A stretch of 64,000 bases of DNA from Nitrospirota bacterium (GTDB taxonomy: Bacteria > Nitrospirota > Thermodesulfovibrionia > Thermodesulfovibrionales > JdFR-86): contig CAVRJY010000005.1 in assembly GCA_963721805.1 (NCBI GenBank), positions 19,318 through 83,317 of the forward strand, written 5' to 3'. The notes below the pieces were generated by a model, which saw only the letters and a program-made list of their open reading frames with translations, made no database searches and was not told the DNA's origin. Shown piece after piece: positions 4,927 to 54,405 of this stretch. Each line of letters begins with the position of its first letter. Position 1 is the first letter of the stretch. The translations under genes and the position numbers were made by a program.

Positions 4927-4967
4927 AAGCTGTAAGTATACCCTATTGGGGCTATGAGGAGTGGTTG

Positions 4968-5177
4968 GAGCGTCTTGAAAGCGCTCGAAGCGTCTTGAAA
5001 GCGCTCCGAATCGCTTGATGCTGCGTTGGACTTCAAAAACTCGCCCTCTATGTACATCCAAGTACACCATCGGGCGGTTTTCTTGTCCTGCCTTGCCTGA
5101 AGACGATTTAGGCGCGCTTTCGGGGGGAGAGAATAACGGAGCCCCCCGCGCCCCACGAGGTCAACGGCATTGATTGG
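4968..5177 (-). repeat. SRE copy R1 (full length; head variant b, body type 1)
   Basis: Head GGTCAACGGCAT at 5159-5170, core CATCGGGCGG/GTACA motifs. Tail carries a 20-bp tandem duplication (4970-4989 and 4990-5009). Confidence 0.85.
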
Positions 5178-5202
5178 ATGGAAAAGTGGTATTATTCCTG
5201 AA

Positions 5203-5706
5203 ATGGACCTGCTTGAGGGAATATACACGCGCCGGAGCGTGAGGAAGTTCACGGCAGAGGACGTCTCGAAAGAGGCGGTCTCGGAGGTCGTCCGCGCCGG
5301 TACGTGGGCGCCGTCGGGCATGAACAACCAGCCCTGGCGGTTCGTCATAGTCCGCACGCCGGAGATGAGGCGCACACTTGCGGGATACACGAAATACGGC
5401 ATGGTCATCGAAGGCGCGCCGGTCGCCATAGCGGTATTCATCGAGACCAGCGAGATGTACAACGCGACCAAGGACCATCAGGCCATCGGCGCGTGCCTTC
5501 AAAACATGCTGCTCGCCGCGCATGCGCAGGGCCTCGGCGCGGTATGGCTGGGCGAGATACTAAACCGCGCGGCCGAGGTAAGAGTGGCGCTCGGAGTTGG
5601 AGAATCTCTGGAACTCATGGCGGTGCTCGCGATAGGCCATCCCGAAGCAGGAAAGCATCACTCTAAACGCAGGCCGGTAGAAGAAGTACTGCTCAAAGAA
5701 ATCTAG
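5203..5706 (+). CDS. Nitroreductase family protein
   Basis: RRSVRKF...PSGMNNQPWRFVIV...HAQGLGAVWLG motifs. Start moved to the Met after the R1 head. Confidence 0.8.
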   Translation: MDLLEGIYTRRSVRKFTAEDVSKEAVSEVVRAGTWAPSGMNNQPWRFVIVRTPEMRRTLAGYTKYGMVIEGAPVAIAVFIETSEMYNATKDHQAIGACLQNMLLAAHAQGLGAVWLGEILNRAAEVRVALGVGESLELMAVLAIGHPEAGKHHSKRRPVEEVLLKEI

Positions 5707-5710
5707 CCTG

Positions 5711-5884
5711 CCTTCCTTGCCAAAGTCGCGCTAAATACGCGTGATACGTTGTCACGGCTCGGAAATCCGTCCTCCAGAGTACATCTCAGTACACTTGCGG
5801 ACGTTTTCCTCGCCGTTCCTAGTCTGACGCGATTTATCGCGCTTTAAGTATCCGCTGCATAATCGTGCGAGCGGTCAACGGCAT
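5711..5884 (-). repeat. SRE copy R2 (head type 2, body type 2)
   Basis: Tail CCTTCCTTGCCAAAGTCGCG at 5711, head GCGGTCAACGGCAT ending at 5884. Abuts R3 head to head. Confidence 0.85.
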
Positions 5885-6079
5885 ATCTAATTAAGCAGTT
5901 GACCTTGGGGGTGCGGGGGTCCAGCGGCTGGGCCGCGTATAACCCCCGAAAGCGCAGCCAAATCGTCTTCAGACTAGGCAGCGGCGAGAAGATCGCCCGA
6001 TGGTGTACTTGGACGTACATAGAGGGCGAGTCTTTGAAGCCCAACGACGTATCAAGCGATTTGGGGCGCTTTCCCTTCC
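5885..6079 (+). repeat. SRE copy R3 (head variant a, body type 1)
   Basis: AT box ATCTAATTAA plus GCAGTTGACC at 5895-5904. Tail GATTTGGGGCGCTTTCCCTTCC ends 3 nt before the pfkB-like stop. Confidence 0.85.
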
Positions 6080-6082
6080 CGC

Positions 6083-6992
6083 TTAGAGCTCTTCGAAGTG
6101 ACTAAGCGCCTTAAACCCTCTATAGCGGTTCTCTATCTCGCGATAGTCGAGAGAGCGGAGCCTATCCAGGCTAAACGCCTCGACATTAAACGAGGCCATG
6201 ACAGAGCCCATCACTACCGCGCGCCGCATCGCGGCCTCGCCGAAGTCCATCGAGTTCGCGAGGTATCCGATGAACCCGCCCGCGAAGGTGTCGCCCGCGC
6301 CGGTCGGGTCGTAGACGTCCTCGAGCGGGTATGCCGGGGCCGCGAAGACCCCGTTGGCCGAGAACATCAGCACGCCGTACTCGCCGCGCTTTATCACGAC
6401 CGTCTGTGGCCCGAGCGTCATGATCACACGCGCGGCCTTCACGAGGTTGCGTCTCGCCGGTGAGCTGCCGGGCCTCGGCGTCGTTGATCAGCAGTATGTT
6501 GACGAGCTTGAGTGTCTTAAGCAGCGAGTCGCGCTGGCCCGAGATCCAGAAGTTCATCGTATCCATGGCGATGACCTTGGGGGCCTTGACCTGCCCCACG
6601 ACCTCGCGCTGGAGGTCGGGGTGTATATTGGCGAGGAAGACGACCTCGGCCTCGCGGTGCGCGGCGCTCAGTATGGGCTTGAAGGTCTCAAAGACGTTAA
6701 GCTGCGTATCGTGCGTGCGTGCCTCGTTTAGCTCGTATGTGTATGAGCCCTTCCAGCGGAAGGTCTTCCCGGCGACGCGTTCTAATCCCGAGAGGTCGAC
6801 CCCGCGCGATTTGAGGAACTTGACGTGCTTGTCCGGGAAGTCCTCGCCGACTACGGCGACGAGGCTTACGTCCGTGAAGTAGCTGGCCGAGGTCGAAAAG
6901 TACGTGGCAGAGCCCCCGAGCGCGTCTTCGACCTCGCCAAAGGGCGTCTTTACGGAATCCAGCGCCATCGAGCCCACCACCAGTAGTCCCAT
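6083..6992 (-). pseudogene. PfkB-family sugar/nucleoside kinase, frameshifted
   Basis: ORFs 6186..7010 and 6083..6442 are N- and C-terminal halves (DPTGAGDTFAGG motif in the C-half). One extra base sits near 6445-6452 (ACGCAACCTC vs expected ACGAACCTC). Confidence 0.7.
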
Positions 6993-7883: not shown

Positions 7884-8228
7884 CTAGTTGTAGTCGTGCG
7901 TGCCGAGGACGACCCTGATCCCGGTCTTCTCGGCGATGAGTTTCGCCAAGTCCTCGGGGCTCGTATAGGGGCAGCCGGGTTTGGACTTCGCGAGGCAGGT
8001 GCTGAGGTGTATCACGTCGGGCTTGATCTGCGCGAGCTTCATCGACATGCCGAGGTTCGGGATCACGGTCCGTCCGGGGCACTCGCAGGTGAAGAAGCCT
8101 ACTACGGTGTAAGGCTCCTCGTAGCTCCCATCGCCGAGCGCCGCCGCCTTCAGGCACCTCCACTCGCCGGGGCAGCCGTATCCACTGTCCATGTATGCTC
8201 CGCAGCCGATTACAACGACGTTCTTCAT
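7884..8228 (-). CDS. CGGC domain protein
   Basis: 114-aa ORF with VIGCGAYMDSGYGCPGEWRC and CECPGR / STCLAKSKPGCPY cysteine motifs. Confidence 0.65.
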   Translation of the reverse strand: MKNVVVIGCGAYMDSGYGCPGEWRCLKAAALGDGSYEEPYTVVGFFTCECPGRTVIPNLGMSMKLAQIKPDVIHLSTCLAKSKPGCPYTSPEDLAKLIAEKTGIRVVLGTHDYN

Positions 8229-8384
8229 CTCGATTCAAACCTCCTTATATGTATGTCCCCGAAAGCCGGGTTGCACGAATGCGATATTTTATATGATCGG
8301 AGCGGGAGAGTCCAGGGCAAGCGGGATGGAATCAAGGAGGGGGCAAGGCACGCACTATCTCGGCATTCGTTTGCTTAAGACAAA

Positions 8385-8433
8385 GTTGAAAAGGAGGGGC
8401 GGGGCATCAAGGCCGACATGCGGCTGATGCCCC
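8385..8433 (-). terminator. Hairpin downstream of the small membrane-protein gene
   Basis: GGGGCATCA (8401-8409) pairs with TGATGCCCC (8425-8433). Partial U-run on the minus strand. Confidence 0.45.
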
Positions 8434-8445
8434 ACACCGAGTGAA

Positions 8446-8640
8446 CTATTGCTTTCCTATACGGATCTTTGAAAGGTCGCCTATGAGACCGAAGACGCTC
8501 AAGAGCCAGATGATAACCGCGATGACCACTACCGCATTCAATATGCTCTTGATGGTAGACTGCATCGGTATAAAGCGGTTAACCATCCATAAAACAACTC
8601 CAACGACTGCCAAGACTACAACTACCTGGACCAATGGCAT
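8446..8640 (-). CDS. Small two-TM hydrophobic protein
   Basis: 64-aa ORF, two hydrophobic segments, own hairpin downstream. Confidence 0.5.
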   Translation of the reverse strand: MPLVQVVVVLAVVGVVLWMVNRFIPMQSTIKSILNAVVVIAVIIWLLSVFGLIGDLSKIRIGKQ

Positions 8641-8804
8641 AGCTCTTCTCCTTTCTGATTACTGCATGCTGTCCAAAAAGTATCACAAGATGTCCGGCTG
8701 CACAAGACGTCCCCGGCCCTGCATTGGAACTTCTTTGACTTACGACGGCGGACGGCATAAGATTAGGATAATGTTATGGCGGACCCTTTTGCCGGGAGGC
8801 ACAT

Positions 8805-10196
8805 ATGAGATACATTAGGCGATTGTTGATGATTGTTTTATCGCTTGCGCTGTTTGTGGGCTGCGGGCTTGGGCAGATAAAACCGCCCGAGGCCCGTGTC
8901 ACGCCCGCGCAGGAGCCTCCGGCCGCGGACTCCTATCTCTTGATGCCAGTAACCGTCTCGCTCGACAAGGTCGTCGCGGAGCTCGACGGCGCGATCCCCC
9001 AAAGCGATGACCGTGACCGCGGGAACAAGGACTGGAAGGTAATCGGCCGCGTGGGCGGGGAGATCGGACTGCGCTATTACTGGGAGCGGGGCCCCGTCTC
9101 GCTGAGCGTGAGCGGGCGGCGCTTGAGGGCCGAGACCGCGCTCAGATACCGCGCAAGGGTCGGGCTGCGTGCGGGCAAGGGCTGGAAGGAGACGTTTTGC
9201 TGCGGCTGCGGCGACCTGAGCACCGCGCGGATAGGGCTTTCGACCCCAATTTCCATAAACCCTGACTGGAGCATCCACACTAAGATCGCGGCCACGCTTG
9301 GTGACACGGGACACCGCTGCAAGGTGAAGGTGCTTAATTTCGACGCGACTGAACTCGTGACCTCCAAGCTCCAAGACCTGATGAACTCCAAGGCCTCTGT
9401 GGTGGATCGGCTCATACGGGAAAAGGTGGACATCAAGCCCAAGGTGCAGGAGGCATGGCGGATACTGCAGCAGCCGATCCCGGCCGGCGATAACGCAAAC
9501 CTGCTCATAAATCCCACGGGCCTGATGGTCTCGCCGTTAAGCGGGGACGGGAATTCCGTGAGCTTCTCGGTTGGAGTGGTGGCGCAGCCAAGGCTGGTCG
9601 CCGGGGTGCTGCCACCCGTGAGCTCAATCCCTCTGCCGAACCCTGAACCCAACGGCTCCCGGCAACGAGTTTCATGTCGCGCTCGAGGGGGAGGTGACAT
9701 ATGATTATGCCACCCAAAAGCTCGCGGACGCGGTCGTCGGGCATGAGTTCCCGATAGGGGACAAAAAGATCACGATAGCGGGCGCGAGGGTGTACGGCTC
9801 GGGGCAGTCCGTGGTGGTCGAGGCCGCGATCAAGGGCTCGTACGAGGGCACGGTCTACCTGTATGGAAGGCCCGCTTACGACGCCGCCAGCGCGCACCGT
9901 CTATATTCAGGACCTCGACTATACGATAGAGACAGACGAGCTTCCTCGGGAGGGTCGCGGACTGGCTCAGGCACTCGACCCTCCGGCAGGACATCGCGGC
10001 AAAGGCCAGGTGGTACGTCGGCGACAAGCTCGACGATGCCGATGCAAAGATAAACCGCGCCATCAATCGCGAGATCAGCCCCGGCGTATCCTTAAGCGGC
10101 AGCGTCGAGTTGCAGCCCGACCGGGTGATCCTGACCGAGACATCCATTAAGGCCATCGTCGTCGCGAGCGGGACGGTGGCGCTTAGCGTAAGGTAG
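8805..10196 (+). pseudogene. DUF4403-like lipoprotein, three successive +1 frame changes
   Basis: Lipobox-like LFVGCG at the N-terminus. The sensible protein path goes frame of 8805, then frame of 9694 (near 9650), then frame of 9863 (near 9890), then back to the first frame (near 9945), ending at TAG 10194-10196. Confidence 0.6.
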
Positions 10197-11622: not shown

Positions 11623-11842
11623 CTCTAATAAAAGCCGTTGACCACGGGGGTGCGGGGGGCGTCCGTTATCCTCTCCCCCCGAAAGCGCGCCCAAATCGGC
11701 TTCAGACAAGGGGACCGGTTGGCCCCTTTTCTTTAGGAAGAGGGGTCCGTGACCTCCGCCCGATGGTGTACTGTGACGTACTTAGAGGGCGAGTCTTTGA
11801 AGACCAACGACGTATCAAGCGATTTGGAGCGCTTTCACTTCC
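11623..11842 (+). repeat. SRE copy R4 (solo; head variant b; body with embedded terminator-like hairpin)
   Basis: CTCTAATAAAA plus GCCGTTGACC at 11634-11643. Hairpin GGGGACCGGTTGGCCCC plus T-run at 11710-11734. Tail ends 35 nt before dnaE. Confidence 0.85.
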
Positions 11843-11877
11843 GCATTGACTCCCCCCCGACATAACCGATAAAATTG

Positions 11878-15618: not shown

Positions 15619-15813
15619 CCTTCTTGAAAGCGATCCAAAGTTCCGGGATACTGCGTCACGTCTCGGAAATCCGTCCTCGATGTACGTCTCAGTACACCGT
15701 CGGACGTTTTCCTCGCCGTTTCCTTGTCTGCCGAAATTTGGCCCGCTTTATGGGGTTAAACGCGGCCCAGCCGCTGGACCCCATACCCCGTGGTCAACGG
15801 CGTTAAATTAGGG
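15619..15813 (-). repeat. SRE copy R5 (head variant a, body type 2, unique covarying P2)
   Basis: Tail CCTTCTTGAAAGCG at 15619. Head GGTCAACGGCG at 15792-15802 plus AT box. Confidence 0.85.
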
Positions 15814-15983
15814 ACACCCATACTGCTACCGGCTACTTTGACATAGTATGTCTCAGTGTGATAAATAATAAGTGGAGGTGCAGATATGACATAGGATAAA
15901 ATGGCTATATTTTTTGAAATGGTTTCACCAAGTATAAGACGCCCTTTGGGCCGAAAATGATTGCGTTGTAAAAGGAAAAGAAA

Positions 15984-16166
15984 ATGGAAATTCAGCCGTC
16001 AAAGAAGAGCCAAGCGCTCCCACGTTGTCAGACCAAGATAAGCGGGTCAGGGTATAACTGCACTACCAATGATCCTGGGGTTCAGCAATACATAGGCAAG
16101 GGCATCTTAATTCTATTGATCTGTGTTGGAGTTGCCGTTATATTAAAGGCGATGCCCCGCAACTGA
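15984..16166 (+). CDS. Possible small C-terminally membrane-anchored protein (60 aa)
   Basis: AT-rich ORF with hydrophobic tail GILILLICVGVAVIL. A strong hairpin follows. Confidence 0.3.
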   Translation: MEIQPSKKSQALPRCQTKISGSGYNCTTNDPGVQQYIGKGILILLICVGVAVILKAMPRN

Positions 16167-16194
16167 TCGTTCTGTGCATAAGTAAATAGAGGCT

Positions 16195-16243
16195 ATAGAC
16201 ACCACGGCCCCTCGTTCGAGGGGCCGTGGTGTCTATATGTTTA
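16195..16243 (+). terminator. Very long perfect hairpin (19-bp stem)
   Basis: ATAGACACCACGGCCCCTC ... GAGGGGCCGTGGTGTCTAT. Weak T-run. Confidence 0.55.
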
Positions 16244-16310
16244 ACATGGGATCGATGATCTTGCAATCGTGAATAAAATTAATCGCTAATCAAGAACCTT
16301 CATTGGCGCG

Positions 16311-16511
16311 GGGGCAGCGGGAGCAAACCAGCCACTATTATAATGCCGTTGACCGCTCGCACGATTATGCAGGGGAAGGTTAAAGTGCGAGAAATCGTGT
16401 CAGACAAGGAACGGCGAGGAAAACCGTCCGCAGTCGTACTGGGATGTACTTCGAGGACGGATTTCCGAAGCCGTGACGACGTATCACGCGCATTTCGCGC
16501 GCTTTGAGAAC
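16311..16511 (+). repeat. SRE copy R6 (head type 2, body type 2; core from 16336)
   Basis: GGGGCAGCGGG extension, TATAAT at 16339-16344, GCCGTTGACC at 16345-16354. Tail ends at the stop codon of the response regulator. Confidence 0.85.
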
Positions 16512-28726: not shown

Positions 28727-28935
28727 ATCTTCTAAAGTCGCGCTAAATACGCGTGATACGTCGTCACCGTTCGAAAAACGATCCTCGAAGTATGTCCATA
28801 TACGACTGCGGGGGTCACAGACCCCTCCTGTAAAGAAAAAGGTGCCCATGGCACCCCTAGTCTGACGCGATTTATCGCGCTTTAAAGTGGTCATTGCATA
28901 ATCGTGCGAGCGGTCAACGGCATTGATTAGAGCAT
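28727..28935 (-). repeat. SRE copy R8 (head type 2; body with embedded hairpins; GTAT/ATAC P4 variant)
   Basis: Tail CTTCTAAAGTCGCGCTAAATACGCG. Hairpins at 28808-28857. Head GGTCAACGGCAT ending 28923 plus TGATTAGAGCAT. Confidence 0.85.
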
Positions 28936-28949
28936 TTCGATTGCTGATT

Positions 28950-28958
28950 TGATATAAT
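28950..28958 (+). promoter_or_regulatory. Extended -10 promoter (TGaTATAAT), probably giving leaderless hicB mRNA
   Basis: TG at 28950-28951 and TATAAT at 28953-28958. The hicB-like ATG is at 28965, and no SD sequence lies between. Confidence 0.45.
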
Positions 28959-28964
28959 CGGGAT

Positions 28965-29192
28965 ATGAGGAAGATCAAGATAACCGCCGAGCTGTTGCCT
29001 GCCGAGGAAGGCGGCTTCGTGGTGTATTGCCCCGAACTCGACATAACCACCGAGGGCGAGACCGCCGAGGAGGCAATCGCGATGCTCAAGGATGCCGCGC
29101 TTGGGTATGTCGAGGTCACGGGCATCGAGAACATCCCCCATTTTTCCGCTAATACCGTCCGGGAAGAGCTTGAACTCGTGGTGAATGGCTAA
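28965..29192 (+). CDS. hicB: HicB-like antitoxin
   Basis: 75 aa, GGFVVYCPELDITTEGETAEEAIAMLKDAA. Overlaps the hicA start. Confidence 0.7.
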   Translation: MRKIKITAELLPAEEGGFVVYCPELDITTEGETAEEAIAMLKDAALGYVEVTGIENIPHFSANTVREELELVVNG

Positions 29193-29433
29193 AGCGCCTT
29201 CCGTCAGCGGCAAGGAGCTGTCCGCTGTGCTTGAGAGGGAGGGCTTCAAGCTCGTAAGGCAGACCGGAAGCCACAGGATATATCAGAAGCAGACCGAAGA
29301 AGGCACAATTACAATCCCCGTCCCGGTGCATTCGAACAAGCCGCTTAAGAAAGGCACCCTCCACGCGATCATCAAGAAAGCCGGAATCACGATGGAGAGA
29401 CTTTCGTTCCTGCTCGCGATCCTGTTCGGCTAG
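29185..29433 (+). CDS. hicA: HicA family toxin
   Basis: 82 aa, GKELSAVLEREGFKLVRQTGSHRIY...PVHSNKPLKKGTLHAIIKKAGI. Confidence 0.75.
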   Translation: MAKAPSVSGKELSAVLEREGFKLVRQTGSHRIYQKQTEEGTITIPVPVHSNKPLKKGTLHAIIKKAGITMERLSFLLAILFG

Positions 29434-29519
29434 GGGGCAGCGCCCCTTGGCTGCCGAAATTTATCGCGCTTTGATGTAGCTTATGCCTAACCGTGCGAGC
29501 GGTCAACGGCATGTTGAGG
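29434..29519 (-). repeat. SRE copy R9 (3'-truncated: head, P1 and first part of P2 only, ending at a GGGGC..GCCCC hairpin)
   Basis: Head GGTCAACGGCAT at 29501-29512. CCGAAATTTATCGCGCTTTG resembles R5. Hairpin at 29434-29446. Confidence 0.7.
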
Positions 29520-29524
29520 CTACC

Positions 29525-30349
29525 TCATTCAGCGGTTGACCAAGCAGCGTAATACGTGTCGTTCAAGTAATTTGCAAGCTTGTTGGTCCCATCAACAAAC
29601 TGCTTCCATACCTGTCGAGTTTCAACAAGCAGAAAATCCAACTCAAAATCAGGAGGTTGTTGTCCAGGGATTGCCAATAATTTGCCTTTTTCTTGCTGTA
29701 TTGGTGCTATCTGAGTCTCCTTAGGCCAATCCACATATGGTGTCTCATTGTGGACAAATTCATGTCGATATGTTTTCATCAGCTTTCTTGTTTCTTCTGA
29801 ATCGAAACATTCATAAAGCAGACTGCACAATTCAGGGTTCTTCTTATTGGCTTTCTTGCAATATATTGAGAAAGACATTTTCTGTTTATTTGTTTCTGTA
29901 TTGATAAAACATAATTTAGCATGCGAGTTCAGTAACCATGCGAGCTTTTCACGATAAGAATGTAGCCTGAATATCGCATTATCCAAGTAATATTTCGAAT
30001 AAAACCAAGCTTCGCCACAGAACGATTTCGAATCCACAAAATCAAGGAATTCAGCACACTGACTTTTTGTCTTTTGCTCATTAAGGTATCTTGACCAAGC
30101 TAAGGCCCAACTGAGACTAACAGCTATAGAGCTTCCACAGTTGTAGACTTGTCTCCACCATTTTGGAATATTATTTACATCACAGTAAAACTCAATAGAA
30201 TCGAGAGCGGGACGCTTCAGAATATTACCTAGAGAAATCCTGCCTTTTGGCAGTGGCAAACTGTCCCAGTCAGTATTTTCAATTTTTAAGGATGTTGCGT
30301 ATTCGGCAACTATACGGAGTCTATCAAGGTAGGCTTCTTTTTCATCCAT
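29525..30349 (-). CDS. AT-rich hypothetical protein with C-terminal Rx4H motif (YRHEFVHN); possible HEPN-type
   Basis: 274-aa ORF with composition far below the backbone. HEPN assignment rests only on the motif. Confidence 0.5.
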   Translation of the reverse strand: MDEKEAYLDRLRIVAEYATSLKIENTDWDSLPLPKGRISLGNILKRPALDSIEFYCDVNNIPKWWRQVYNCGSSIAVSLSWALAWSRYLNEQKTKSQCAEFLDFVDSKSFCGEAWFYSKYYLDNAIFRLHSYREKLAWLLNSHAKLCFINTETNKQKMSFSIYCKKANKKNPELCSLLYECFDSEETRKLMKTYRHEFVHNETPYVDWPKETQIAPIQQEKGKLLAIPGQQPPDFELDFLLVETRQVWKQFVDGTNKLANYLNDTYYAAWSTAE

Positions 30350-30379
30350 CTTTCTTCCCTCTCGGCCACCAGCAAAACC

Positions 30380-30601
30380 TTACGTCAGCAGGCTCGCCAC
30401 AGAGATGTCCTCGTCGATCTCTTCCCAGTGTATGCCGATTCCCCGGCCTATGAGGCGCCATCCGGCGCGCTGGGCCTCGGACGCGTCACGGAGCCTAGGG
30501 AACCACTCGAACGGGACACTTATCTGCCGGCCGTCTAGGAGGCGCACATGCAACATATCGTTATCGAACCATACGGCGTTTGCTATATGAGCAGTAGACA
30601 T
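30380..30601 (-). CDS. DUF2442 domain protein
   Basis: 73 aa, LHVRLLDGRQISVPFEWFPRLRDASEAQRAGWRLIGRGIGIHWEEIDEDIS. Confidence 0.7.
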   Translation of the reverse strand: MSTAHIANAVWFDNDMLHVRLLDGRQISVPFEWFPRLRDASEAQRAGWRLIGRGIGIHWEEIDEDISVASLLT

Positions 30602-30666
30602 GAGTTGATTATACCACTTCGATTATTGCCGGCCGATTGTCCCCACTCACCGCTGAGCTGTGCCCC

Positions 30667-31028
30667 CTTCATTAACAATAGTTAATCGAAAGTTAATAGA
30701 AAACGCACAGGGCTCAATTTTTCCTATAACCTTCTGTTTATATATAAACCAAAGTTTGGCATTCTTTAGTGTATAGTGGTGACATGAGCATGATAGAATC
30801 ATATTTGATGGGCTGGACAGGCGAGGATGCAGGGTTCCGCACTTGTTCGGATAAATCGCTAAATACCGCTCTTTTTATCCGAACATCCGAACAAGACGGA
30901 CTCAGTGAAGCTATATATTCCGCAGGGTTAGCCTCGTTTTTGTCTCCAACATCCGAACAAAAAAGGCAAAAACGCGCGCGCACGCGCGCGGAATGCGTAA
31001 CTATACCTAAGCGCGAACGTCCGAACAC
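30667..31028 (+). repeat. Module X1: 360-bp AT-rich module fused to the head of R10
   Basis: Roughly 75-80 percent identical (by eye), with no indels, to 47670-48032. Contains ATTAAC/GTTAAT sites, GTTTATATATAAAC, five ATCCGAACA-like sites and a (CG)n palindrome at 30973-30990. Confidence 0.8.
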
Positions 31029-31205
31029 GCCTTTGACCTCGTGGGGCGCGGGGGGCCTCCGTAATGTTCTCCCCCCGAAAGCGCGCCCAAATCGGCTTCA
31101 GACAAGGCAGGGCGAGAAGACCGCCCGATGGTGTACTGTGACGTACATAGAGGGCGAGTCCTCGCAGCCCAACGCAGTATCAAGCGATTTGGCGCGCTTT
31201 GCACC
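31029..31205 (+). repeat. SRE copy R10 (head variant b, body type 1)
   Basis: GCCTTTGACC at 31029-31038. Tail GATTTGGCGCGCTTTGCACC ends 37 nt before ald. Confidence 0.85.
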
Positions 31206-40872: not shown

Positions 40873-40902
40873 TAACTCTGAATATTACGAGCGAAGAGGG
40901 AA

Positions 40903-41034
40903 AGGGGGCCGGATGGCCCCTTCTCTTTTATGGGAGGGGTCCGTGACCCCCGCAGGTGTACTGGGATGTACTCCGAGGGAGCGGCTGCGAGCCGTGACGA
41001 CGTATCACGCGATTTCGGCTCGCTTTCTAGAAGG
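40903..41034 (+). repeat. SRE copy R13 (5'-truncated; begins at the terminator-like hairpin)
   Basis: GGGGGCCGGATGGCCCC plus T-run (40904-40930), GGGGTCCGTGACCCC (40936-40950), then body and tail. The tail overlaps the ccsA-like stop codon. Confidence 0.75.
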
Positions 41035-44181: not shown

Positions 44182-44789
44182 CTCGGCACCTTTATTATAT
44201 GCCTCACCGCGCCGCCTGAGTGCGGGAGTTCGACGTCTATGACCTCGCACTCGACCCCGGCGATCTCCTCTTCGTAACGCGGCCCTTTATTCAGCACGAA
44301 AGCGCCGCCGGGGGCGACTATGTCCCCTGCCCCTTCAATAAATTCCCTCACACTAAATAGCGCGCGCGTCACCGCGATGTCCGCGCTGATGCCCGAGGCC
44401 TCCGAGACCTTGGCGTTGATAACCGTGATGCCCGTAAGATTGAGCCGCCGGATGATATGCCGAAGGAACGCGCACTTCTTCTTCGCGGGCTCGATCAGGT
44501 ATACCGTGATATCCGGGCGCATTATCTTGATAGGCACGCCCGGAAACCCCGCGCCGGTGCCGATGTCCGCGAGGCTGTGCACCTCCGGGCCGATAGCGCG
44601 CAGGTATAGGCAGCTGTCCAGCATGTGCTTTACAGCGATCTCATTGGCGTCGCGCAGCGCGGTGAGGTTGTGCGTGCGGCCCCAGCGGCTGAGCTCGTCC
44701 ATGTGAAGCACCATAGCCGAGACCTGCGCGGCGGTGGCCTCGATGCCGAGGCTGGCGAGGCCGTCTGAGATTATCTCATCAGGCCGCAC
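44178..44789 (-). CDS. rsmG: 16S rRNA (guanine527-N7)-methyltransferase
   Basis: 203 aa with SAM motif DIGTGAGFPGVPIKI. Immediately downstream of mnmG. Confidence 0.85.
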   Translation of the reverse strand: MRPDEIISDGLASLGIEATAAQVSAMVLHMDELSRWGRTHNLTALRDANEIAVKHMLDSCLYLRAIGPEVHSLADIGTGAGFPGVPIKIMRPDITVYLIEPAKKKCAFLRHIIRRLNLTGITVINAKVSEASGISADIAVTRALFSVREFIEGAGDIVAPGGAFVLNKGPRYEEEIAGVECEVIDVELPHSGGAVRHIIKVPR

Positions 44790-46642
44790 TCCGGCGGTCC
44801 CTCTCTAACATTATGATCAGGAGTGAGAGAGCGACCGGCGTGACGCCGGGTATGCGGCTTGCCTGCCCGAGGCTCCGGGGCCTGACCTCCTCGAGCTTGT
44901 GGCGCACCTCGGTCGAGAGGCCGGTGATCGCGGCATAGTCGAACCCGGCCGGGATCGCCATCGACTCGGCGCGCCGCAGCTTCTCTGCCGCCTCGCGCTG
45001 GCGCAGGATGTAGCCCGAGTACTTCACCTCGGTCTGGATCAGCATCGCATCGTCGGCACTGAACTCGGCGGCGGGCGGCGATATGCGCGAGATCGAGGGA
45101 TAGTCCATCTCCGGCCGCTTAAGCAGCGTATCGAGCATCACACTCTCGGCAATCGGCGAGGTCCCGCGCTCGCTAAGTATTGGATTTGCGTCACGCGGCT
45201 TGCAGCGCGTCGTGCGGATGCGCTCGATCTCGGAAAGCACCAAGCGGCGCTTTTCGCTAAACGCACGGTGGGCATCATCAGAAATCAGCCCGGCCTCGTG
45301 GCCCTTGTCCGTCAGGCGCATCTGGGCGTTGTCGTGGCGCAGCAGCAGGCGGTATTCCGCGCGCGAGGTGAACATGCGGTACGGCTCGTTCGTGCCCTTT
45401 GTCACGAGATCGTCTATCAGGATGCCGATGTACGCCTCGTCGCGGCCAAGGATCAGCGGAGCGCGGCCCTGAAGCGAGAGCGCGGCGTTTATCCCGGCCA
45501 TTATCCCCTGTGATGCGGCCTCCTCGTACCCGGAGGTCCCGTTTATCTGCCCGGCGAGGTAGAGACCGCGTACCGCCTTGGTCTCTAATGAGTGCGTGAT
45601 CTGCGTGGGGTATACGAAGTCGTACTCTATCGCGTATGCCGGGCGCATGATCTCGGCGGCCTCAAGCCCCGCGATAGAATGAACCAGCGCGACCTGCACG
45701 TCATATGGCAGGCTCGTCGAGATCCCGTTTGCGTAGTATTCCTCGGTCTTCAGCCCTTCGGGCTCCAAAAATACCTGATGCCGCTCGCGCGCGGCAAAGC
45801 GCATCACCTTGTCCTCTATCGAGGGGCAGTATCTGGGGCCTATGCCTGTTATCTGTCCACTATACAATGGTGAGCGGTCCAGAGATCCACGGATGATCTC
45901 GTGCGTGGTCGCGTTCGTATATGTCATGTAGCACGGGAGCTGTTGGTTCGTGATCTCGCGGGTCGAGTGCGAAAACGGGGGCGGCGGGACGTCGCCATAG
46001 TGAGCGGTCGTCTTTGAGAAGTCTATCGAGCGGGCGTCTATACGGGGCGGTGTGCCGGTCTTGAGGCGGCCCAATCTCAGGCCCATCGCAGGCGAGAGAT
46101 TCGGATATGCCTAACGCGGGGAACTCACCGGCGCGTCCTGCGCTGATCTGGCTCAGGCCTATGTGCATCAGTCCGTTCAGAAACGTACCGGTCGTGACGA
46201 TCACCGAGCGCCCAGCGATGAACACGCCGATGTTATCGATAACGCCTGTGACTCGTCCGCCCTCATGCGTTATGTCCACGATATTGGCCTGCCGGATCGT
46301 GAGGCCCGCCTGCGCCTCGATCGACTGGCGCATATTGGTGCGGTACAGGGCGCGGTCGGCCTGCGCGCGGAGCGACCAGACGGCGGGGCCCTTAGAGAGG
46401 TTGAGCATCTTGAAGTGGATGCCCGAGCGGTCGGTGACGCGCGCCATCTCGCCGCCCAGCGCGTCGATCTCGCGGACTAGGTGGCCCTTCGCGAGCCCGC
46501 CGATGGCCGGGTTGCAGGACATCTGGCCTATCGTATCGAGGTTCATCGTGCAGAGGCACGTACGCATACCCATCCTAGCCGCAGCCAGAGCGGCCTCGCA
46601 ACCGGCGTGGCCGGCACCGATAACTATTACGTCGAATGACAT
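44779..46642 (-). pseudogene. mnmG: tRNA uridine 5-carboxymethylaminomethyl modification enzyme MnmG, split by one frame change
   Basis: ORF 45860..46642 (GAGHAGCEAA FAD motif) and ORF 44779..46086 (GRLKTGTPPRID onward) together give full-length MnmG. The shift lies near 46085-46100. Confidence 0.85.
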
Positions 46643-47669: not shown

Positions 47670-48032
47670 CTTCATTAACCATAGTTAATCGAAAGTTAAT
47701 AGAAAACGAATGGCCCCTAATTTTTCCTATTATCTTCGGTTTATATATGAACCAAAGTTTGGCATTCTTTAGTGTATAGTGGAGGCTATGAGTATGATAG
47801 AGTCCTATTTGATGGTCGCGGCAAGTGTTATGGATGTCCGCGCCGCGTGTTCGGATAATGGGCCAAAAACATCGCTTTTTATCCGAACATTCGAACAGGG
47901 GAACTTTTCAAAAGCTAGTAAATCCGGTGGGTTAGCTCCGATTTTGCCCCCAACATCCGAACAAAATCGGCAAAAACGCGCGCGTGCGCGCGCGGTATGC
48001 ATATATATGCCTAAGCGGGGATATCCGAACAT
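47670..48032 (+). repeat. Module X2: second copy of the 360-bp AT-rich module, fused to the head of R15
   Basis: Collinear with X1. GGAGG then ATG at 47794. Inverted repeat GTTCGGATAA (47849-47858) / TTATCCGAAC (47879-47888). (CG)n palindrome at 47977-47994. Confidence 0.8.
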
Positions 48033-50695: not shown

Positions 50696-50891
50696 TCTTT
50701 TTCAAAGCGCTCCAAATCGCTTGATACGTCGTCATCAGTCGAAAATAGTCCTCGGAGTATGTCCATATACACCTGCGTCCTATTTTCGCCTTCTTCCTAG
50801 TCTGAAGACGATTTGGCCGCGCTTTCGGGGGTTGGTCGCGGCCCAGCCGCTGGACCCCCGCACCCCCAAGGTCAACGGCTTAGATTAGATA
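50696..50891 (-). repeat. SRE copy R16 (head variant a; private P3 AAAATAG/CTATTTT; GTAT/ATAC P4)
   Basis: Tail GTCTTTTTCAAAGCGCTCC at 50696. Head GGTCAACGGC at 50870-50879 plus TTAGATTAGATA. Confidence 0.85.
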
Positions 50892-51215
50892 TTATCTGAC
50901 AATCGAACGGACGACTTTTAGGATGAGGCGCTGTTTATCTTCACCAGCTTCCTTGACTAGGCTGCTGATTTCCTTTGCCAGTTCCTGTGAAGATTTTTTA
51001 TGATGTGAGAACTCGAAGAAATCCTTCATATCCATTTTCAAAGACTTGGCTATTGCCGCCAGTGTATCCATCGAGGGGAACCCCCTCCCTACTTCAATCC
51101 GGCTAAGGTGCTTCGGGTCTATATCTATCATCTCGGCAAGCTTTTCCTGAGACAAGCCCCTCAGCTTTCGCAGTTCTTTTATCCTTGCCCCAAGTAATCC
51201 TTTTGGTGTCTCCAT
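50892..51215 (-). CDS. XRE-family helix-turn-helix transcriptional regulator
   Basis: 107 aa, LGARIKELRKLRGLSQEKLAEMIDIDPKHLSRIEVG. Confidence 0.8.
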   Translation of the reverse strand: METPKGLLGARIKELRKLRGLSQEKLAEMIDIDPKHLSRIEVGRGFPSMDTLAAIAKSLKMDMKDFFEFSHHKKSSQELAKEISSLVKEAGEDKQRLILKVVRSIVR

Positions 51216-51409
51216 AATCTTCCTCCATCAATAATCGCTTTTCAGGAGGGTTTTTATAACTATCTTAAATGGCGATAAGTAATTGCCTTATCTACATTTG
51301 ATATAGTAAACTCTACATTGCAGATAGATATTAGAGGCAAGTCCGGCTTAATATGCTGAATCATGATGCCGTAAGGGGCACGATATGACGGAAGACAACG
51401 AACTCTAAA

Positions 51410-51805
51410 ATGACACACCTGCACAACAGCCAGCCTGTCGGCATCCACTTCCTTGTCGAGTTTTTCGGCTGCTCGGAGGAGCAGTTGGATTCGCTCCGCT
51501 TCTGGAAGAAGCTGCTTGCGGATGCGGTCAAGGGCAGTGATATAAAGATGCTGAATAAGCACTTCTATCATTTCAAGCCCCATGGCATAACCGGATATCT
51601 CCTGCTTTCCACGTCCCATATATCGGTGCATACATGGCCCGAGTATGCCTATGTCGCCTGCGATGTCTTTAGCTGCGGCGGGAAAGCCGAGACTAAAAGC
51701 ATTGTAAAGCACATTACGGACAATCTTAATCATGACACGGTGAAGATAAAGAAAATGAAACGGGGATTTAGGATTTTTTCTGACAAAGGAGGTCATCTTA
51801 GCTAA
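51410..51805 (+). CDS. S-adenosylmethionine decarboxylase-like (SpeD-family pyruvoyl enzyme), atypical processing site
   Basis: HFLVEFFGC...GITGYLLLSTSHISVHTWPEYAYVACDVFSCG aligns to the prokaryotic SpeD core. The usual Glu-Ser cleavage pair reads Thr-Ser. Confidence 0.65.
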   Translation: MTHLHNSQPVGIHFLVEFFGCSEEQLDSLRFWKKLLADAVKGSDIKMLNKHFYHFKPHGITGYLLLSTSHISVHTWPEYAYVACDVFSCGGKAETKSIVKHITDNLNHDTVKIKKMKRGFRIFSDKGGHLS

Positions 51806-51806
51806 T

Positions 51807-52331
51807 ATGGTTGGGAAAATCGGTTTTCAAACTGAGATAATTCAAGGATATAGAGAAGAATATTTCAAATCAATTTTAAAGCTCGAACCATTATTCCCGA
51901 TTTCCATCCAAGACTCAAAAGATAAAACAATTGAACATTTGAAAACACCTTCAAACATTAATATTTTTCTCAGGAAAGATGAAAGCATAATCGGCTGGAT
52001 CTTGGGGACGCCACAAAATACTATCTATGAAGAACTAAAAACCGATGATATTGAGATCAAGCCCGATGACGAAATGTATTATATTGATAAAGTTGTTGTA
52101 GTACCTGAACACCGCGAAGGTCTAACCTTTCTCAGGTTGGGAGACGCGCTAATCAATGAGGCAAAAAAACGAGGTTGTCATAAAATATCTGCACATATCG
52201 TATCTGACAACGGACTCCATAAAATAATTATAAGGAAATTTGGCAAATTTATCATAACAAGGAGAAAAGTGTCTTTAGCAATACATGATTTTATTCCATT
52301 TGAGTATATTGAAATATGCTTACCTAAATGA
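51807..52331 (+). CDS. GNAT-like acetyltransferase (cargo paralog 2)
   Basis: 174 aa. Shares blocks N-I-x-x-FL, ELKxDD, PDxxMYYI, RG-x-x-KIS-x-H with 36335..36850. Confidence 0.55.
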   Translation: MVGKIGFQTEIIQGYREEYFKSILKLEPLFPISIQDSKDKTIEHLKTPSNINIFLRKDESIIGWILGTPQNTIYEELKTDDIEIKPDDEMYYIDKVVVVPEHREGLTFLRLGDALINEAKKRGCHKISAHIVSDNGLHKIIIRKFGKFIITRRKVSLAIHDFIPFEYIEICLPK

Positions 52332-52338
52332 CTTACCG

Positions 52339-52881
52339 ATGAAAGGCGAGGGCACCAAGGAGAACAGCACAGAAAAGCTGTTGTCTTATGGCGGCAGGAT
52401 TGCTGAGCTATCCATCGGAATTACCGCAAGTCAATTTTTAGTGTTCGTTTTCGATTATCTTCTTTATCCGTTTATCGTTTATCAATTCGGGCTTCTCATG
52501 GGCGGGATTGTAATGACTATTTTTTCATTGATTGCTTGTTTACTTGTAATGAAAGTTTATGATTGGTCTAAACGGGATTGGTTAGGCATTGAGTCAATAA
52601 AACGGTTAAAGGAATACACAGGAGGTAGAAAAACAGGAAAGATACTGTCATGGATATTAAGACAGAGTAATCCAGTGGTCATGCTATTTCTCTCAATCAA
52701 GTTTGACCCATTTATCGCAACTATATACATGAGACATGGAAGCCACCAATATAACGGCATGAGCAAGAGGGATTGGAAGATATTCTTTACAAGTCTTGTA
52801 CTCAGTAATATCTATTGGACACTCGCAGCCTTCACAGGGGTTACGGTCATAGAGTACGCATGGAGGCACTTATTCAAATAA
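52339..52881 (+). CDS. AT-rich polytopic membrane protein, hypothetical
   Basis: About 180 aa with four or five hydrophobic segments. The stop TAA at 52879-52881 directly abuts the R17 head. Confidence 0.5.
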   Translation: MKGEGTKENSTEKLLSYGGRIAELSIGITASQFLVFVFDYLLYPFIVYQFGLLMGGIVMTIFSLIACLLVMKVYDWSKRDWLGIESIKRLKEYTGGRKTGKILSWILRQSNPVVMLFLSIKFDPFIATIYMRHGSHQYNGMSKRDWKIFFTSLVLSNIYWTLAAFTGVTVIEYAWRHLFK

Positions 52882-53058
52882 GCCGTTGACATTGGGGGCG
52901 CGGGGGGCGTCCGTTGCAGTGCCCCCCGAAAGCGCGCCCAAATCGTCTTCAGACAAGGCAGGGCGAGAAGACCGCCCGATGGTGTACTTGGGCGTACATA
53001 GAGGGCGAGTCTTCGATGCCCAACGACGTATCAAGCAATTTGGCGCGCTTTAAAGAAA
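52876..53058 (+). repeat. SRE copy R17 (head variant b, body type 1)
   Basis: GCCGTTGACA at 52882-52891. Tail GCGCGCTTTAAAGAAAGC ends 5 nt before the rodA stop. Confidence 0.85.
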
Positions 53059-53063
53059 GCGAG

Positions 53064-54182
53064 CTAGTAGAAAAGTTCGAACCGTCTGGTTCGAACGTTG
53101 ATTAACAAGGCGGCGGCTATGTAGTTGCCGGCCAGCGCCGTCCCCCCATAGCTCATGAACGGCAGCGGTATGCCCACGACCGGCATCAGCCCCAGCGTCA
53201 TCGAGACGTTGATCACGGTATAGAGGAAGAACATGAAGGTGATGCCCGTTGCGAGCATGCGGCCGAAGTCGTCCTTGGCCTTCCCTGCAGTATCGAGGCC
53301 CCGGTGCAGGAGCGTGAAGTACAGCCCCAGCAGCGCCAGCGAGCCTACCAGCCCCCACTCCTCGGCGAAGATCGAGAAGATGAAGTCCGTGTGCTTCTCT
53401 GGCAGGAACCTAAACGGCCCCTGCGTGCCCTTGAGGTAGCCCTTGCCGAACAGCCCGCCCGAGCCCACCGCGACCTTCGACTGGTTGATGTGGTAGCTCA
53501 GGCCGTCGGGGTCGCTGTCGGGGTCCACGAAGGACAGTATGCGGTTTTTCTGGTAGTCCTTAAGGTGGTCCCAGGCCACGGTGCCCGCGACCGGCAGCAC
53601 GACCAGCGAGACCAGCACGCTCACGATCAGGAGCTTCTTGCCGACGCCCTTGGCGAGCACCATCAGCACGAACATCCCAAGCAGTATCACCGCGGTGCCG
53701 AGGTCCGGCTGCTTGATGATCATCAGCACCGGTACGAGCGTGAAGGACAGAAACGCGGTTATCACCTGCCGGGCCGTAAGCGCCCCCTCTATGCCCGAGA
53801 GGTAGCGCGAGAGCATCATCAGGTATGCGAGCTTGAAGACCTCGCTCGGCTGGAACTGCACCCCGCCGACGGATATCCACCGCTTGGCCCCCATGCCGGT
53901 ATGACCGAGCACGAAGACCAGCGCGAGCAGCACGATGCCCAGGGCGTAGAGGTATGGCGCGGCGCGGTGAAACCAGGTGTAGTCCACGCTCAGGATCAGC
54001 GACATCATCCCCAGCCCGATCAGCAGCCAGTAGGTCTGTCGCACGTAGAACGTGGGCCAGCTGGTATCGAAGAGCGGCCGCGTGGCGCTGAAGATCGTCA
54101 TGATCCCGAGCGCGGTGATCGAGAGCACGATGCCGAGCGTCGGCCAGTCCATGTTCGCCAGCAGCCGTCTGTCAATGCGCAC
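53064..54182 (-). CDS. rodA: Rod-shape peptidoglycan glycosyltransferase RodA (SEDS family)
   Basis: 372-aa polytopic ORF (PEKHTDFIFS, MSYGGT motifs). GTG start at 54182. Downstream of mrdA. Confidence 0.9.
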   Translation of the reverse strand: MRIDRRLLANMDWPTLGIVLSITALGIMTIFSATRPLFDTSWPTFYVRQTYWLLIGLGMMSLILSVDYTWFHRAAPYLYALGIVLLALVFVLGHTGMGAKRWISVGGVQFQPSEVFKLAYLMMLSRYLSGIEGALTARQVITAFLSFTLVPVLMIIKQPDLGTAVILLGMFVLMVLAKGVGKKLLIVSVLVSLVVLPVAGTVAWDHLKDYQKNRILSFVDPDSDPDGLSYHINQSKVAVGSGGLFGKGYLKGTQGPFRFLPEKHTDFIFSIFAEEWGLVGSLALLGLYFTLLHRGLDTAGKAKDDFGRMLATGITFMFFLYTVINVSMTLGLMPVVGIPLPFMSYGGTALAGNYIAAALLINVRTRRFELFY

Positions 54183-54196
54183 TGTTGGCTCCGGGA

Positions 54197-54405
54197 ACGT
54201 TTAATAAGCCGTTGACCTTGGGGTATGGGGTCCAGCGGCGGAGCCGCGACCAACCCCATAAGGTGCGATAAATCGTCTTCAGGCAAGGAAGGGCGAGGAA
54301 AACGTCCGCAAGTGTACTGTGATGTACTCTGGAGGACGGATTTCCGAAGCCCTGACGCAGTATCAAGTGATTTAGCGCGCCTTCAAAAGGTGTGCAAACA
54401 GCTCT
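54197..54405 (+). repeat. SRE copy R18 (solo; head variant a, body type 2) inserted between mrdA and rodA
   Basis: GCCGTTGACC at 54208-54217 and tail GCGCGCCTTCAAAAGG at 54375-54390. Flanked by AATGCGCACTGTTGGC at 54174-54189 and 54406-54421. Confidence 0.85.

Follow-up and report, generated by a model that had tools for sequence, protein, structure and literature searches.

A head-to-head pair of structured repeats in a Nitrospirota chromosome, plausibly an empty docking site for foreign gene islets

The DNA considered here is a 64-kb stretch from a Nitrospirota bacterium (GenBank assembly GCA_963721805.1, contig CAVRJY010000005.1, positions 19,318 to 83,317), called the window throughout. 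At positions 5711–6079 it contains two inverted copies, R2 and R3, of a dispersed, non-coding, hairpin-forming repeat with a unit of about 170–215 bp, for which we use the name SRE. The two copies meet head to head and occupy the complete 376-bp gap between the stop codons of two convergent genes, one for a nitroreductase and one for a pfkB-family sugar kinase. In the alignment of the copies, an SRE runs from an AT box (ATnTCTAATnAA) through a near-invariant 10-mer (GCCGTTGACC) and a head module to a shared body of ~125 nt with the 3' end ...GTATCAMGCGATTTGGNGCGCTTT. The head module is either type A, which starts GCTCGCACGATTATGCAG, or type B, a G-rich hairpin, and the two types are unrelated. 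The locus is organised as follows:

4991..5181, minus strand: R1, an SRE of type B, inverted relative to R3; the same position is occupied in the relative L123
5203..5706, plus strand: nitroreductase gene (Pfam PF00881, 6e-29; translation; homologues)
5707..5882, minus strand: R2, head type A and body subtype 2, without an AT box of its own (blastn, nhmmer, alignment)
5707–5722, 5723–5846 and 5847–5872: tail extension, body hairpin and A-type head hairpin of R2
5873–5882: 10-mer of R2, GCCGTTGACC when read on the minus strand
5883..5894: dimer centre, spacer ATATCTAATTAA, a single AT box belonging to R3; the 13-6-13 inverted repeat described below spans 5873–5904
5895..6082, plus strand: R3, head type B and body subtype 1 (blastn, nhmmer, alignment)
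5895–5904, 5905–5947 and 5948–6072: 10-mer GCAGTTGACC, G-rich B-type head hairpin and body hairpin of R3, followed by a tail extension that reaches the pfkB stop codon (6083–6085)
6083..6992, minus strand: pfkB-family sugar kinase gene, its stop codon abutting the R3 tail, with an apparent frameshift near 6440–6480

Searches with blastn and nhmmer identify both halves as true SRE members, placing R2 at 5711/5723–5890 in minus sense (body E=1.3e-31, head A E=3.4e-18) and R3 at 5882/5885–6072/6079 in plus sense (body E=8.3e-35, head B E=8.1e-22). The central sequence (5873–5904) is exactly what a previous reading of this DNA from its letters alone (the sequence-only reading) had described, namely GGTCAACGGC-ATATCTAATTAA-GCAGTTGACC within the surrounding gcgagcGGTCAACGGCatatctaattaaGCAGTTGACCttggggg, with 12 nt between the 10-mers GGTCAACGGC and GCAGTTGACC. 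That reading had also placed only the AT box of R3 between the two head motifs, and this too is borne out: the 12-nt spacer fits the AT-box consensus solely in the direction of R3, so that R2 stops at its 10-mer. An alternative description of the centre is an inverted repeat of the form 13-6-13, GGTCAACGGCATA/TCTAAT/TAAGCAGTTGACC, in which 11 of 13 positions are complementary. A 381-nt stretch over the dimer has a folding z-score of -7.3 against shuffles. To call the dimer a giant palindrome goes too far. Likeness in inverted orientation is confined to the two ~125-nt bodies (71% identity by blastn), and each body forms a hairpin of its own; since R2 has a head of type A and R3 one of type B, the inner ~100 nt share the 10-mer only. 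The closest copy to R2 is c16343 (88%) and the closest to R3 is c62515 (90%; both blastn).

Both tails lie against genes. The nitroreductase gene ends with a stop codon at 5704–5706 and the R2 tail begins 1–16 nt beyond it, while the start of the same gene is 22 nt from the head of R1. The tail region of R1 contains a 20-bp tandem duplication (4960–4999). Between R1 and the gene (window 5186–5205), the hexamer TATTAT lies 7 nt before the nitroreductase ATG and is kept in L123, with no Shine–Dalgarno sequence visible upstream; the dnaE start (window 11849–11877) has a promoter-like TTGACT-18-TAAAAT. Because these promoter-like hexamers are so close to the start codons, the nitroreductase and dnaE mRNAs look leaderless.

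The repeat family is abundant in this DNA, with 20 loci found by blastn and profile searches (18 essentially complete copies, one head fragment and one partial body) that together account for 5.3% of its length. Fourteen exact matches to the 10-mer GCMGTTGACC are present in the window, all of them within SRE heads, and allowing one mismatch gives 33 matches where 7.6 are expected. The 125-nt body is a long imperfect hairpin centred on GTAC-N6-GTAC that is maintained through compensatory changes: over 28 consensus pairs in 18 aligned copies, 96% of the cells are canonical and 10 pairs have changed on both sides. None of 500 shuffles matches the observed pairing values, and slid-partner controls pair at 28–50%. 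The covariation largely divides two body subtypes (CGCCC/GGGCG vs. CGTCC/GGACG), and therefore reflects few independent events. On the head-to-tail strand, G-U pairs (34) outnumber A-C mismatches (7), and for 16 of 18 bodies it is also this strand that gives the better RNA fold, with a mean gain of 6.2 kcal/mol; if the structure acts single-stranded, the head-to-tail strand is thus the one that would act. All four combinations of head type and body subtype are found among the copies, which are therefore mosaics, and orientation is unbiased (9 minus, 11 plus) even though the GC skew holds one sign across the window.

Some copies carry additional parts. Three (~11708–11740, 28838–28858 and ~40900–40930) have an added canonical terminator hairpin in the 5' arm of the body, GGGGNCC...GGCCCC plus a T-run, always head to tail, which would halt transcription leaving the head side. 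Four type-A copies (c16343, c35408, c46682 and c60895) have an upstream module, GGGGCAGCGGCTGGG, 17–26 nt before the 10-mer, preceded by a second AT box in c60895 and c16343. This module aligns with the 5' half of the type-B head in the same orientation, so type A may have arisen by nesting of a head within a B head. Upstream of the heads, a head-like 10-mer in inverted orientation shows weak enrichment, most of which is due to this module. A sigma-70 promoter in the head (with the AT box as UP element or -10, and TTGACC as -35) was considered and rejected, as there is no consistent second hexamer. The covariance models of Rfam 15 gave no match at gathering score in the window, and in three copy-bearing regions noise alone at E up to 10.

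A single SRE is a unit of insertion, as can be seen at one site:

54190..54405, plus strand: c54205, the reference single SRE insertion, a 216-bp insert in the mrdA/rodA junction of an essential operon

c54205 is bracketed by a perfect 16-bp direct duplication, AATGCGCACTGTTGGC, at 54174–54189 and 54406–54421. The duplicated sequence comprises the end of mrdA plus the start of rodA, both of which are recreated around the insert, and with one indel allowed it extends to 19–20 bp and takes in the rodA Shine–Dalgarno sequence GGAG. In the relatives L120 and L134, mrdA and rodA overlap by 11–14 bp at a repeat-free junction. Since the duplication bounds c54205, it defines the extent of the unit, which has its 5' end 18 nt upstream of the 10-mer and runs, at the 3' end, to 22 nt past ...GCGCCTT. 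The ends of the 216-bp insert, TCCGGGAACG... and ...CAAACAGCTCT, are not complementary, and the inverted repeat is internal, in the body. Around the 18 other copies and around every pair, neither exact nor approximate searches found a target duplication above background. c54205 is the only case in which both duplicate copies are coding, and purifying selection would preserve them there.

The sequence-only reading had offered a form resembling a MITE (miniature inverted-repeat transposable element) as one explanation of the dimer, which would then be a mobile or composite unit with SREs as long terminal inverted repeats and no passenger. Non-autonomous elements bounded by miniature inverted-repeat elements can indeed move the intervening DNA (PMC4133298), and the geometry of R2/R3 is that of the cargo-bearing pairs described below. 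However, insertion is proven for a single SRE, which does not end in inverted repeats, no duplication flanks the dimer or any pair, the halves are only 71% alike with different head types, and the R2–R3 pairing has no second copy in the window. This proposal is further contradicted by the relative L123, in which the position of R2 holds a copy of type B. Because R2 and R3 belong to different subfamilies, we take the dimer to be neither a duplicated palindrome nor a mobile dimer, and consider the latter very improbable.

L123 is a closer relative (nitroreductase 83% identical) represented by a 760-bp contig with two SRE copies, at 1–104 and 601–760. The first lies head-first upstream of the nitroreductase gene, as R1 does, and the second begins at the stop codon in the orientation of R2. 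This downstream copy is of type B (87–89% identical to c31016, c52876 and R3; 72% to R2), so that the same site holds different subfamilies in the two genomes. The contig breaks within G-rich head hairpins at both ends. L123 also bears on whether the junction could be a misjoin or hairpin chimera of long-read assembly. Several core genes in the window have frameshifts typical of indel-prone assemblies, and there is no independent contig across the junction. Nevertheless, arms that agree at only 71% are far too dissimilar to stem from an inverted-duplication artefact, each of the two flanking genes has its proper end at a tail, and L123 independently has a minus copy directly past the nitroreductase stop codon; we regard an artefact as barely credible.

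The relation of the repeats to foreign DNA is the observation that gives the dimer its interest. Six islets of 0.5–2.1 kb with a GC content of 0.35–0.47, against 0.60–0.65 for the core genes, each lie between a minus and a plus copy with the heads inward, and a seventh low-GC stretch adjoins the solo head of c11624. The islet genes encode HicAB, HEPN, DUF2442, GNAT, Abi_C, DUF2283/DUF4258, an XRE regulator and membrane proteins. Two of the occupied pairs are used as examples here:

28735..31200: occupied pair of islet 2, c28734 (minus) / islet / c31016 (plus), with hicBA, HEPN, DUF2442 and module C
29441–29515, minus strand: internal truncated SRE copy in islet 2, following hicA
50704..53051: occupied pair of islet 5, c50696 (minus) / islet / c52876 (plus), GC 0.41

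Wherever foreign low-GC DNA is attached to an SRE in this window, the attachment is at the head end (AT box plus GCCGTTGACC). The islets abut heads in all 13 islet-flanking copies, and in the same 13 the conserved sequence ends ~12–20 nt upstream of GCCGTTGACC. All 12 copies that flank the six islets have a core gene at the tail side and foreign DNA at the head side, and in 17 of 18 copies across the family the GC content is lower at the head side than at the tail side. In two cases a cargo stop codon overlaps the AT box. In islet 5, which contains XRE and membrane protein genes as well as SpeD-like and GNAT-like genes by translated sequence, cargo stop codons overlap the AT boxes at both ends. 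The smallest islet (15812–16337, 526 bp, GC 0.45) has only a 60-aa open reading frame (ORF) and, after it, a hairpin (16196–16237) whose 18-bp stem is perfect. The distances between paired 10-mers are 12, 543, 1190, 1348, 1468, 2002 and 2107 nt, and the R2/R3 dimer is the zero-cargo end of this series. The claim that R2/R3 has the geometry of the cargo-bearing pairs with nothing inside thus holds for all six islets, and the dimer centre, when aligned with the cargo junctions, coincides with the joining point, as the 13 islet-flanking copies and the two stop codons over the AT box indicate.

Module C is a 370-bp non-coding module found in two islets (30667–31028 and 47670–48030, 83–89% identical), where it takes the place of the AT box beside the heads of c31016 and c48026. 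It contains four TCCGAACA motifs, a hairpin that is conserved, and a T-run preceded by a GC palindrome; the nine matches to TCCGAACA in the window all lie within the two module C sites, and the module may be the end of another element. The homology between the two sites includes the 10-mer and breaks off at its 3' edge, beyond which head B follows at one locus and head A at the other, which marks the 10-mer as a junction of modules.

The tails show a regularity of their own, and it might account for the arrangement without any role for the heads. Most SRE tails lie within ~45 nt of a core gene; 15 of 19 abut the 3' end of a gene, mostly within 0–35 nt. In addition, every convergent junction in the window has SREs, and the solo copies between core genes (c54205 and c24334) obey the same 3'-end rule. 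SREs could therefore simply insert or persist tail-first past stop codons, with foreign DNA gathering harmlessly in mid-spacer and the dimer unrelated to cargo. Four tails depart from this by facing the 5' ends of core genes, namely holB (R1), dnaE, ald and gidA. In three of these copies (c11624, c31016 and c46682, with tails toward dnaE, ald and gidA) the head faces a low-GC islet, so a rule of tails after stop codons is insufficient; the head of R1 faces the nitroreductase gene. Moreover, the division into core and cargo sides is without exception in the 12 copies flanking the six islets, and all six islets sit exactly at a head–head junction within ~370 bp of repeat, which would be very unlikely for untargeted joining unless intact copies were selected. 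Gene geometry by itself is a rather unlikely explanation.

A different pairing of the copies, passed over in the sequence-only reading, also has to be considered. R1 and R3 are both of type B, and when inverted R1 (4998–5181) is 87–89% identical to R3 over 126 nt, a better inverted pair than R2/R3; together they enclose the nitroreductase gene plus R2. The nitroreductase gene could then be an old, ameliorated cargo of a real islet pair, with R2 as an internal copy, and R3 would not be cargo-less. Consistent with this, the gene is found in different neighbourhoods in L120 and L124, in L123 it is likewise flanked by an R1 counterpart and a minus copy past its stop codon, and islet 2 has the same pattern of minus copy, cargo, minus copy (29441–29515, after hicA) and plus copy. 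On the other hand, the composition of the gene is host-like (GC3 0.71, GC of the stretch 0.60), and the contact between R2 and R3 is still a head-to-head junction with nothing inside. We consider this pairing unlikely.

Taken together, the data make it plausible that the R2/R3 junction is an empty docking site. The explanation that we favour, with a confidence that stops somewhat short of an even chance, is that R2 and R3 are separately acquired copies of a lineage-specific repeat, that the head is a preferred joining point, and that the junction is its ground state with nothing joined. R2 and R3 would have been acquired separately, each tail-first at the stop codon of one of the two convergent genes, and they meet head to head because each tail sits against one of these genes. 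Incoming DNA would enter or join preferentially at the SRE head, in the way that some insertion sequences favour the REP/BIME palindromes of Proteobacteria (see below). We infer this joining step from the head–cargo association, which is exceptionless, and from the six islets lying exactly at head–head junctions. The R2/R3 junction would be the same joining point unfilled and, as such, the islet-bearing structure in its ground state, not a mobile dimer. The role of the structured body is probably played in RNA or single strands, by the head-to-tail strand; it could, for instance, insulate core genes from transcription coming out of the islets.

Several observations weigh against this explanation. 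The dimer has been seen once (n=1), with no second head-to-head dimer in the 64-kb window, and its junction is known from the assembly alone. A possible relic of a second junction lies in islet 2 at 29501–29541, GGTCAACGGC-N21-GCGGTTGACC, for which a rough chance estimate is ~0.03 and whose second 10-mer (GCGGTTGACC) sits in the final codons of the HEPN gene. Neither a transposase, integrase, recombinase or reverse transcriptase gene nor an HUH gene was found in the 64 kb by Pfam scans of most ORFs longer than ~100 aa. Apart from c54205, no copy or pair has a target duplication. Within a pair, the two AT boxes face in opposite directions instead of repeating directly, and no conservation is seen on the cargo side of the junctions, so that neither a target duplication made by the cargo nor a simple conservative att x att integration fits; no second recombinase arm is conserved there. 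The SRE copies are related to each other, and the covariation and strand statistics thus rest on few independent events. Finally, R1 and R3 may be the copies that truly belong together, in which case the nitroreductase gene would be old cargo.

The empty state could also be secondary, as the sequence-only reading had allowed, a former islet between R2 and R3 having been lost along with the AT box of R2. R2 does lack an AT box that five of the seven other type-A copies have, it lacks the upstream GGGGCAGCGGCTGGG module present in four type-A copies, and the site turns over, with another subfamily at the R2 position in L123. Yet recombination between inverted sites inverts and does not delete, no scar or cargo remnant is present at the dimer, and three other type-A copies likewise have no upstream module; a deleted state appears improbable. 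A more ambitious version of the docking idea makes the SRE heads the sites of a gene-capture system dispersed over the chromosome. Two inverted heads would form the 13-6-13 core (arms ending GCCGTTGACC, spacer TCTAAT) at which a trans-acting recombinase would insert or exchange transposase-less cassettes, the bodies would be outward insulators and R2/R3 an empty site. We regard this as speculative and unlikely. If true, it would amount to a functional analogue of integrons and dif modules spread over dozens of intergenic sites on a mobile repeat, with toxin–antitoxin, Abi, HEPN and GNAT cassettes and with bodies that would shield the neighbouring core genes.

The window itself is bacterial (dnaE, purL, mreBCD-mrdA-rodA, metG), and its proteins are closest to those of metagenome-assembled genomes of Thermodesulfovibrionales/Nitrospirota. 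SREs are known from this 64-kb window and one 760-bp contig of a relative. In the relatives L120, L124–L128, L133 and L134 (71–85% protein identity, ~72 kb) no copy was found, compared with 20 in the window, and more distant relatives have neither synteny at the dimer site nor SREs. A scan of a genome collection with GGTCAACKGCN{0,30}GCMGTTGACC returned at least 119 chance matches in GC-rich genomes, none with an SRE among the matches listed. A 20-base body pattern gave two chance matches and no SRE in JGI metagenomes, viral contigs scanned with body and head-A patterns gave nothing real, and BLAST of the dimer and two islets against phages and plasmids gave no match. Judged by these searches, the SRE family is new. 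As to the window at large, pfkB (6083–6992), DUF4403 (7896–9704) and gidA/mnmG (44779–46642) are each split between reading frames and intact in relatives (for the kinase, a 302-aa homologue that is 93% identical), which suggests pseudogenes or indel errors of long-read assembly, and an indel-prone assembly. The PSP1-domain gene contains a 49-bp repeat (2584–2731; 94% identical, 99-bp spacing), and the methionyl-tRNA synthetase gene has an Asn/Lys-rich insert (~700–900) within the lower-GC first 2 kb.

SREs make up ~5% of this stretch and break short-read assemblies of relatives, so that recognising them aids assembly and annotation. They mark to the nucleotide the borders of foreign defence and toxin–antitoxin islets among essential genes (dnaE, purL, rodA, gidA). 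If the head is indeed a docking site, it would be a new means by which a bacterial chromosome acquires foreign cassettes and insulates them, and the empty dimer would be a natural substrate for seeking the joining enzyme. If it is not, the SRE still adds a clear new example to the structured mobile repeats, one whose target duplication is unusually long.

How do SREs compare with known systems? In function they come closest to doublets of BIME and REPIN type, MITE-bounded composites, dif modules and integron cassettes. A repetitive extragenic palindromic (REP) unit is a palindrome of ~20–40 bp, and a REPIN consists of two inverted REPs forming one hairpin; mobilisation is by a REP-associated tyrosine transposase (RAYT), a Y1 HUH transposase. 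Like SREs, the REPs, bacterial interspersed mosaic elements (BIMEs) and REPINs of Proteobacteria are abundant, extragenic, hairpin-forming and located mostly at gene 3' ends. REPs and BIMEs further share with them inverted doublets of unlike unit types with a short linker, compensatory hairpin evolution, and palindromes as preferred targets of incoming mobile DNA; REPs are hot spots for insertion sequences (PMC3116915, PMC1525189). In contrast to REPs and REPINs, an SRE is 165–215 bp long with an asymmetric head and tail and the hairpin in a 125-nt body, so it is not a short palindrome, and there is no RAYT gene among the Pfam-scanned proteins of the window. One SRE insertion also has a 16-bp target duplication, and the attached DNA consists of transposase-less foreign islets rather than insertion sequences. 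REP palindromes bear a conserved GTAG or CGTC tag at one end (PMC3733652); by eye, no such tag is visible in the alignment at the ends of the SRE hairpin, and CGTC is internal and restricted to type-B copies.

MITEs resemble SREs in being small, non-coding and multi-copy, in their lineage-specific burst, and in being present or absent between relatives (20 loci vs. 0 in ~72 kb). MITEs and Tn3-derived inverted-repeat miniature elements (TIMEs; PMC4133298) also share insertion with target duplication, seen at one SRE copy, and inverted copies bracketing passenger genes. The proven SRE unit, however, has no terminal inverted repeats, and unlike MITE composites, SRE pairs are of mixed subfamilies, without detectable duplications and with the passengers always at the head side. 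The non-autonomous palindrome-associated transposable elements (PATEs) of IS200/IS605 type make no target duplication and transpose strand-specifically as single strands, with an orientation bias to replication, whereas SREs show the 16-bp duplication at c54205 and a 9 minus/11 plus distribution. The Correia elements and NIMEs of Neisseria are repeats of 100–150 bp with hairpin potential at gene ends, the Correia elements having terminal inverted repeats and a TA duplication; neisserial minimal mobile elements are alternative accessory cassettes between conserved genes, exchanged by homologous recombination in the flanking genes. SREs share with these systems the hairpin repeats at gene ends and the intergenic mosaics with accessory cassettes, but their sequence is unrelated to that of Correia elements, which alone have the terminal inverted repeats and the TA duplication.

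The dif modules of Acinetobacter plasmids are small accessory modules, often toxin–antitoxin systems, that lie between complete sites in inverse orientation (PMC13141974, PMC6449649), and like the islets they have no recombinase of their own. The Xer-dependent dif site is 28 bp long, with a XerC arm, 6 bp and a XerD arm, ATTTCGTATAA-N6-TTATGTTAAAT (PMC13141974). The dimer has a similar layout of inversely oriented sites with arm, 6-bp spacer and arm, here 13-6-13, and the sites bounding the islets are inversely oriented in six of six cases, with only the SRE-side arm conserved at occupied junctions. However, the dimer centre, GGTCAACGGCATA-TCTAAT-TAAGCAGTTGACC, shows no similarity to the XerC and XerD arms. 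Read backwards, head A does contain (C)GCATAA-N6, yet the 11 nt that follow, GAGCGGTCAAC, agree with the XerD arm at only 4 of 11 positions. Unlike dif, SRE sites lie inside a structured repeat of 170–215 bp, on the chromosome and between core genes.

In integrons, attC sites carry R'' (RYYYAAC) and R' (GTTRRRY) core sites that close an imperfect palindrome of 55–140 bp, and the cassettes are arrayed in one orientation beside intI and attI. An attC site is, like an SRE, a structured imperfect palindrome with one strand folding better, and integron cassettes resemble the islets in their toxin–antitoxin, GNAT and small unknown genes of foreign composition. SREs nevertheless lack the R''/R' core sites, and their hairpin closes with AAAGCGC.../...GCGCTTT; GTTGACC does agree with GTTRRRY at six of seven positions, but it is not part of the hairpin, and the copy that carries it contains no inverse partner. 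SRE copies also flank cargo in inverted rather than direct orientation and are dispersed rather than arrayed, and there is no integrase in the window. The resemblances to Xer/dif, attC and integration host factor (IHF) sites were examined by eye against the alignment and rejected. Because REP/REPIN, MITE, dif and attC each failed on at least one defining feature, we conclude that the SRE is a new structured interspersed repeat, and its unusual trait is the polarised association with foreign islets.

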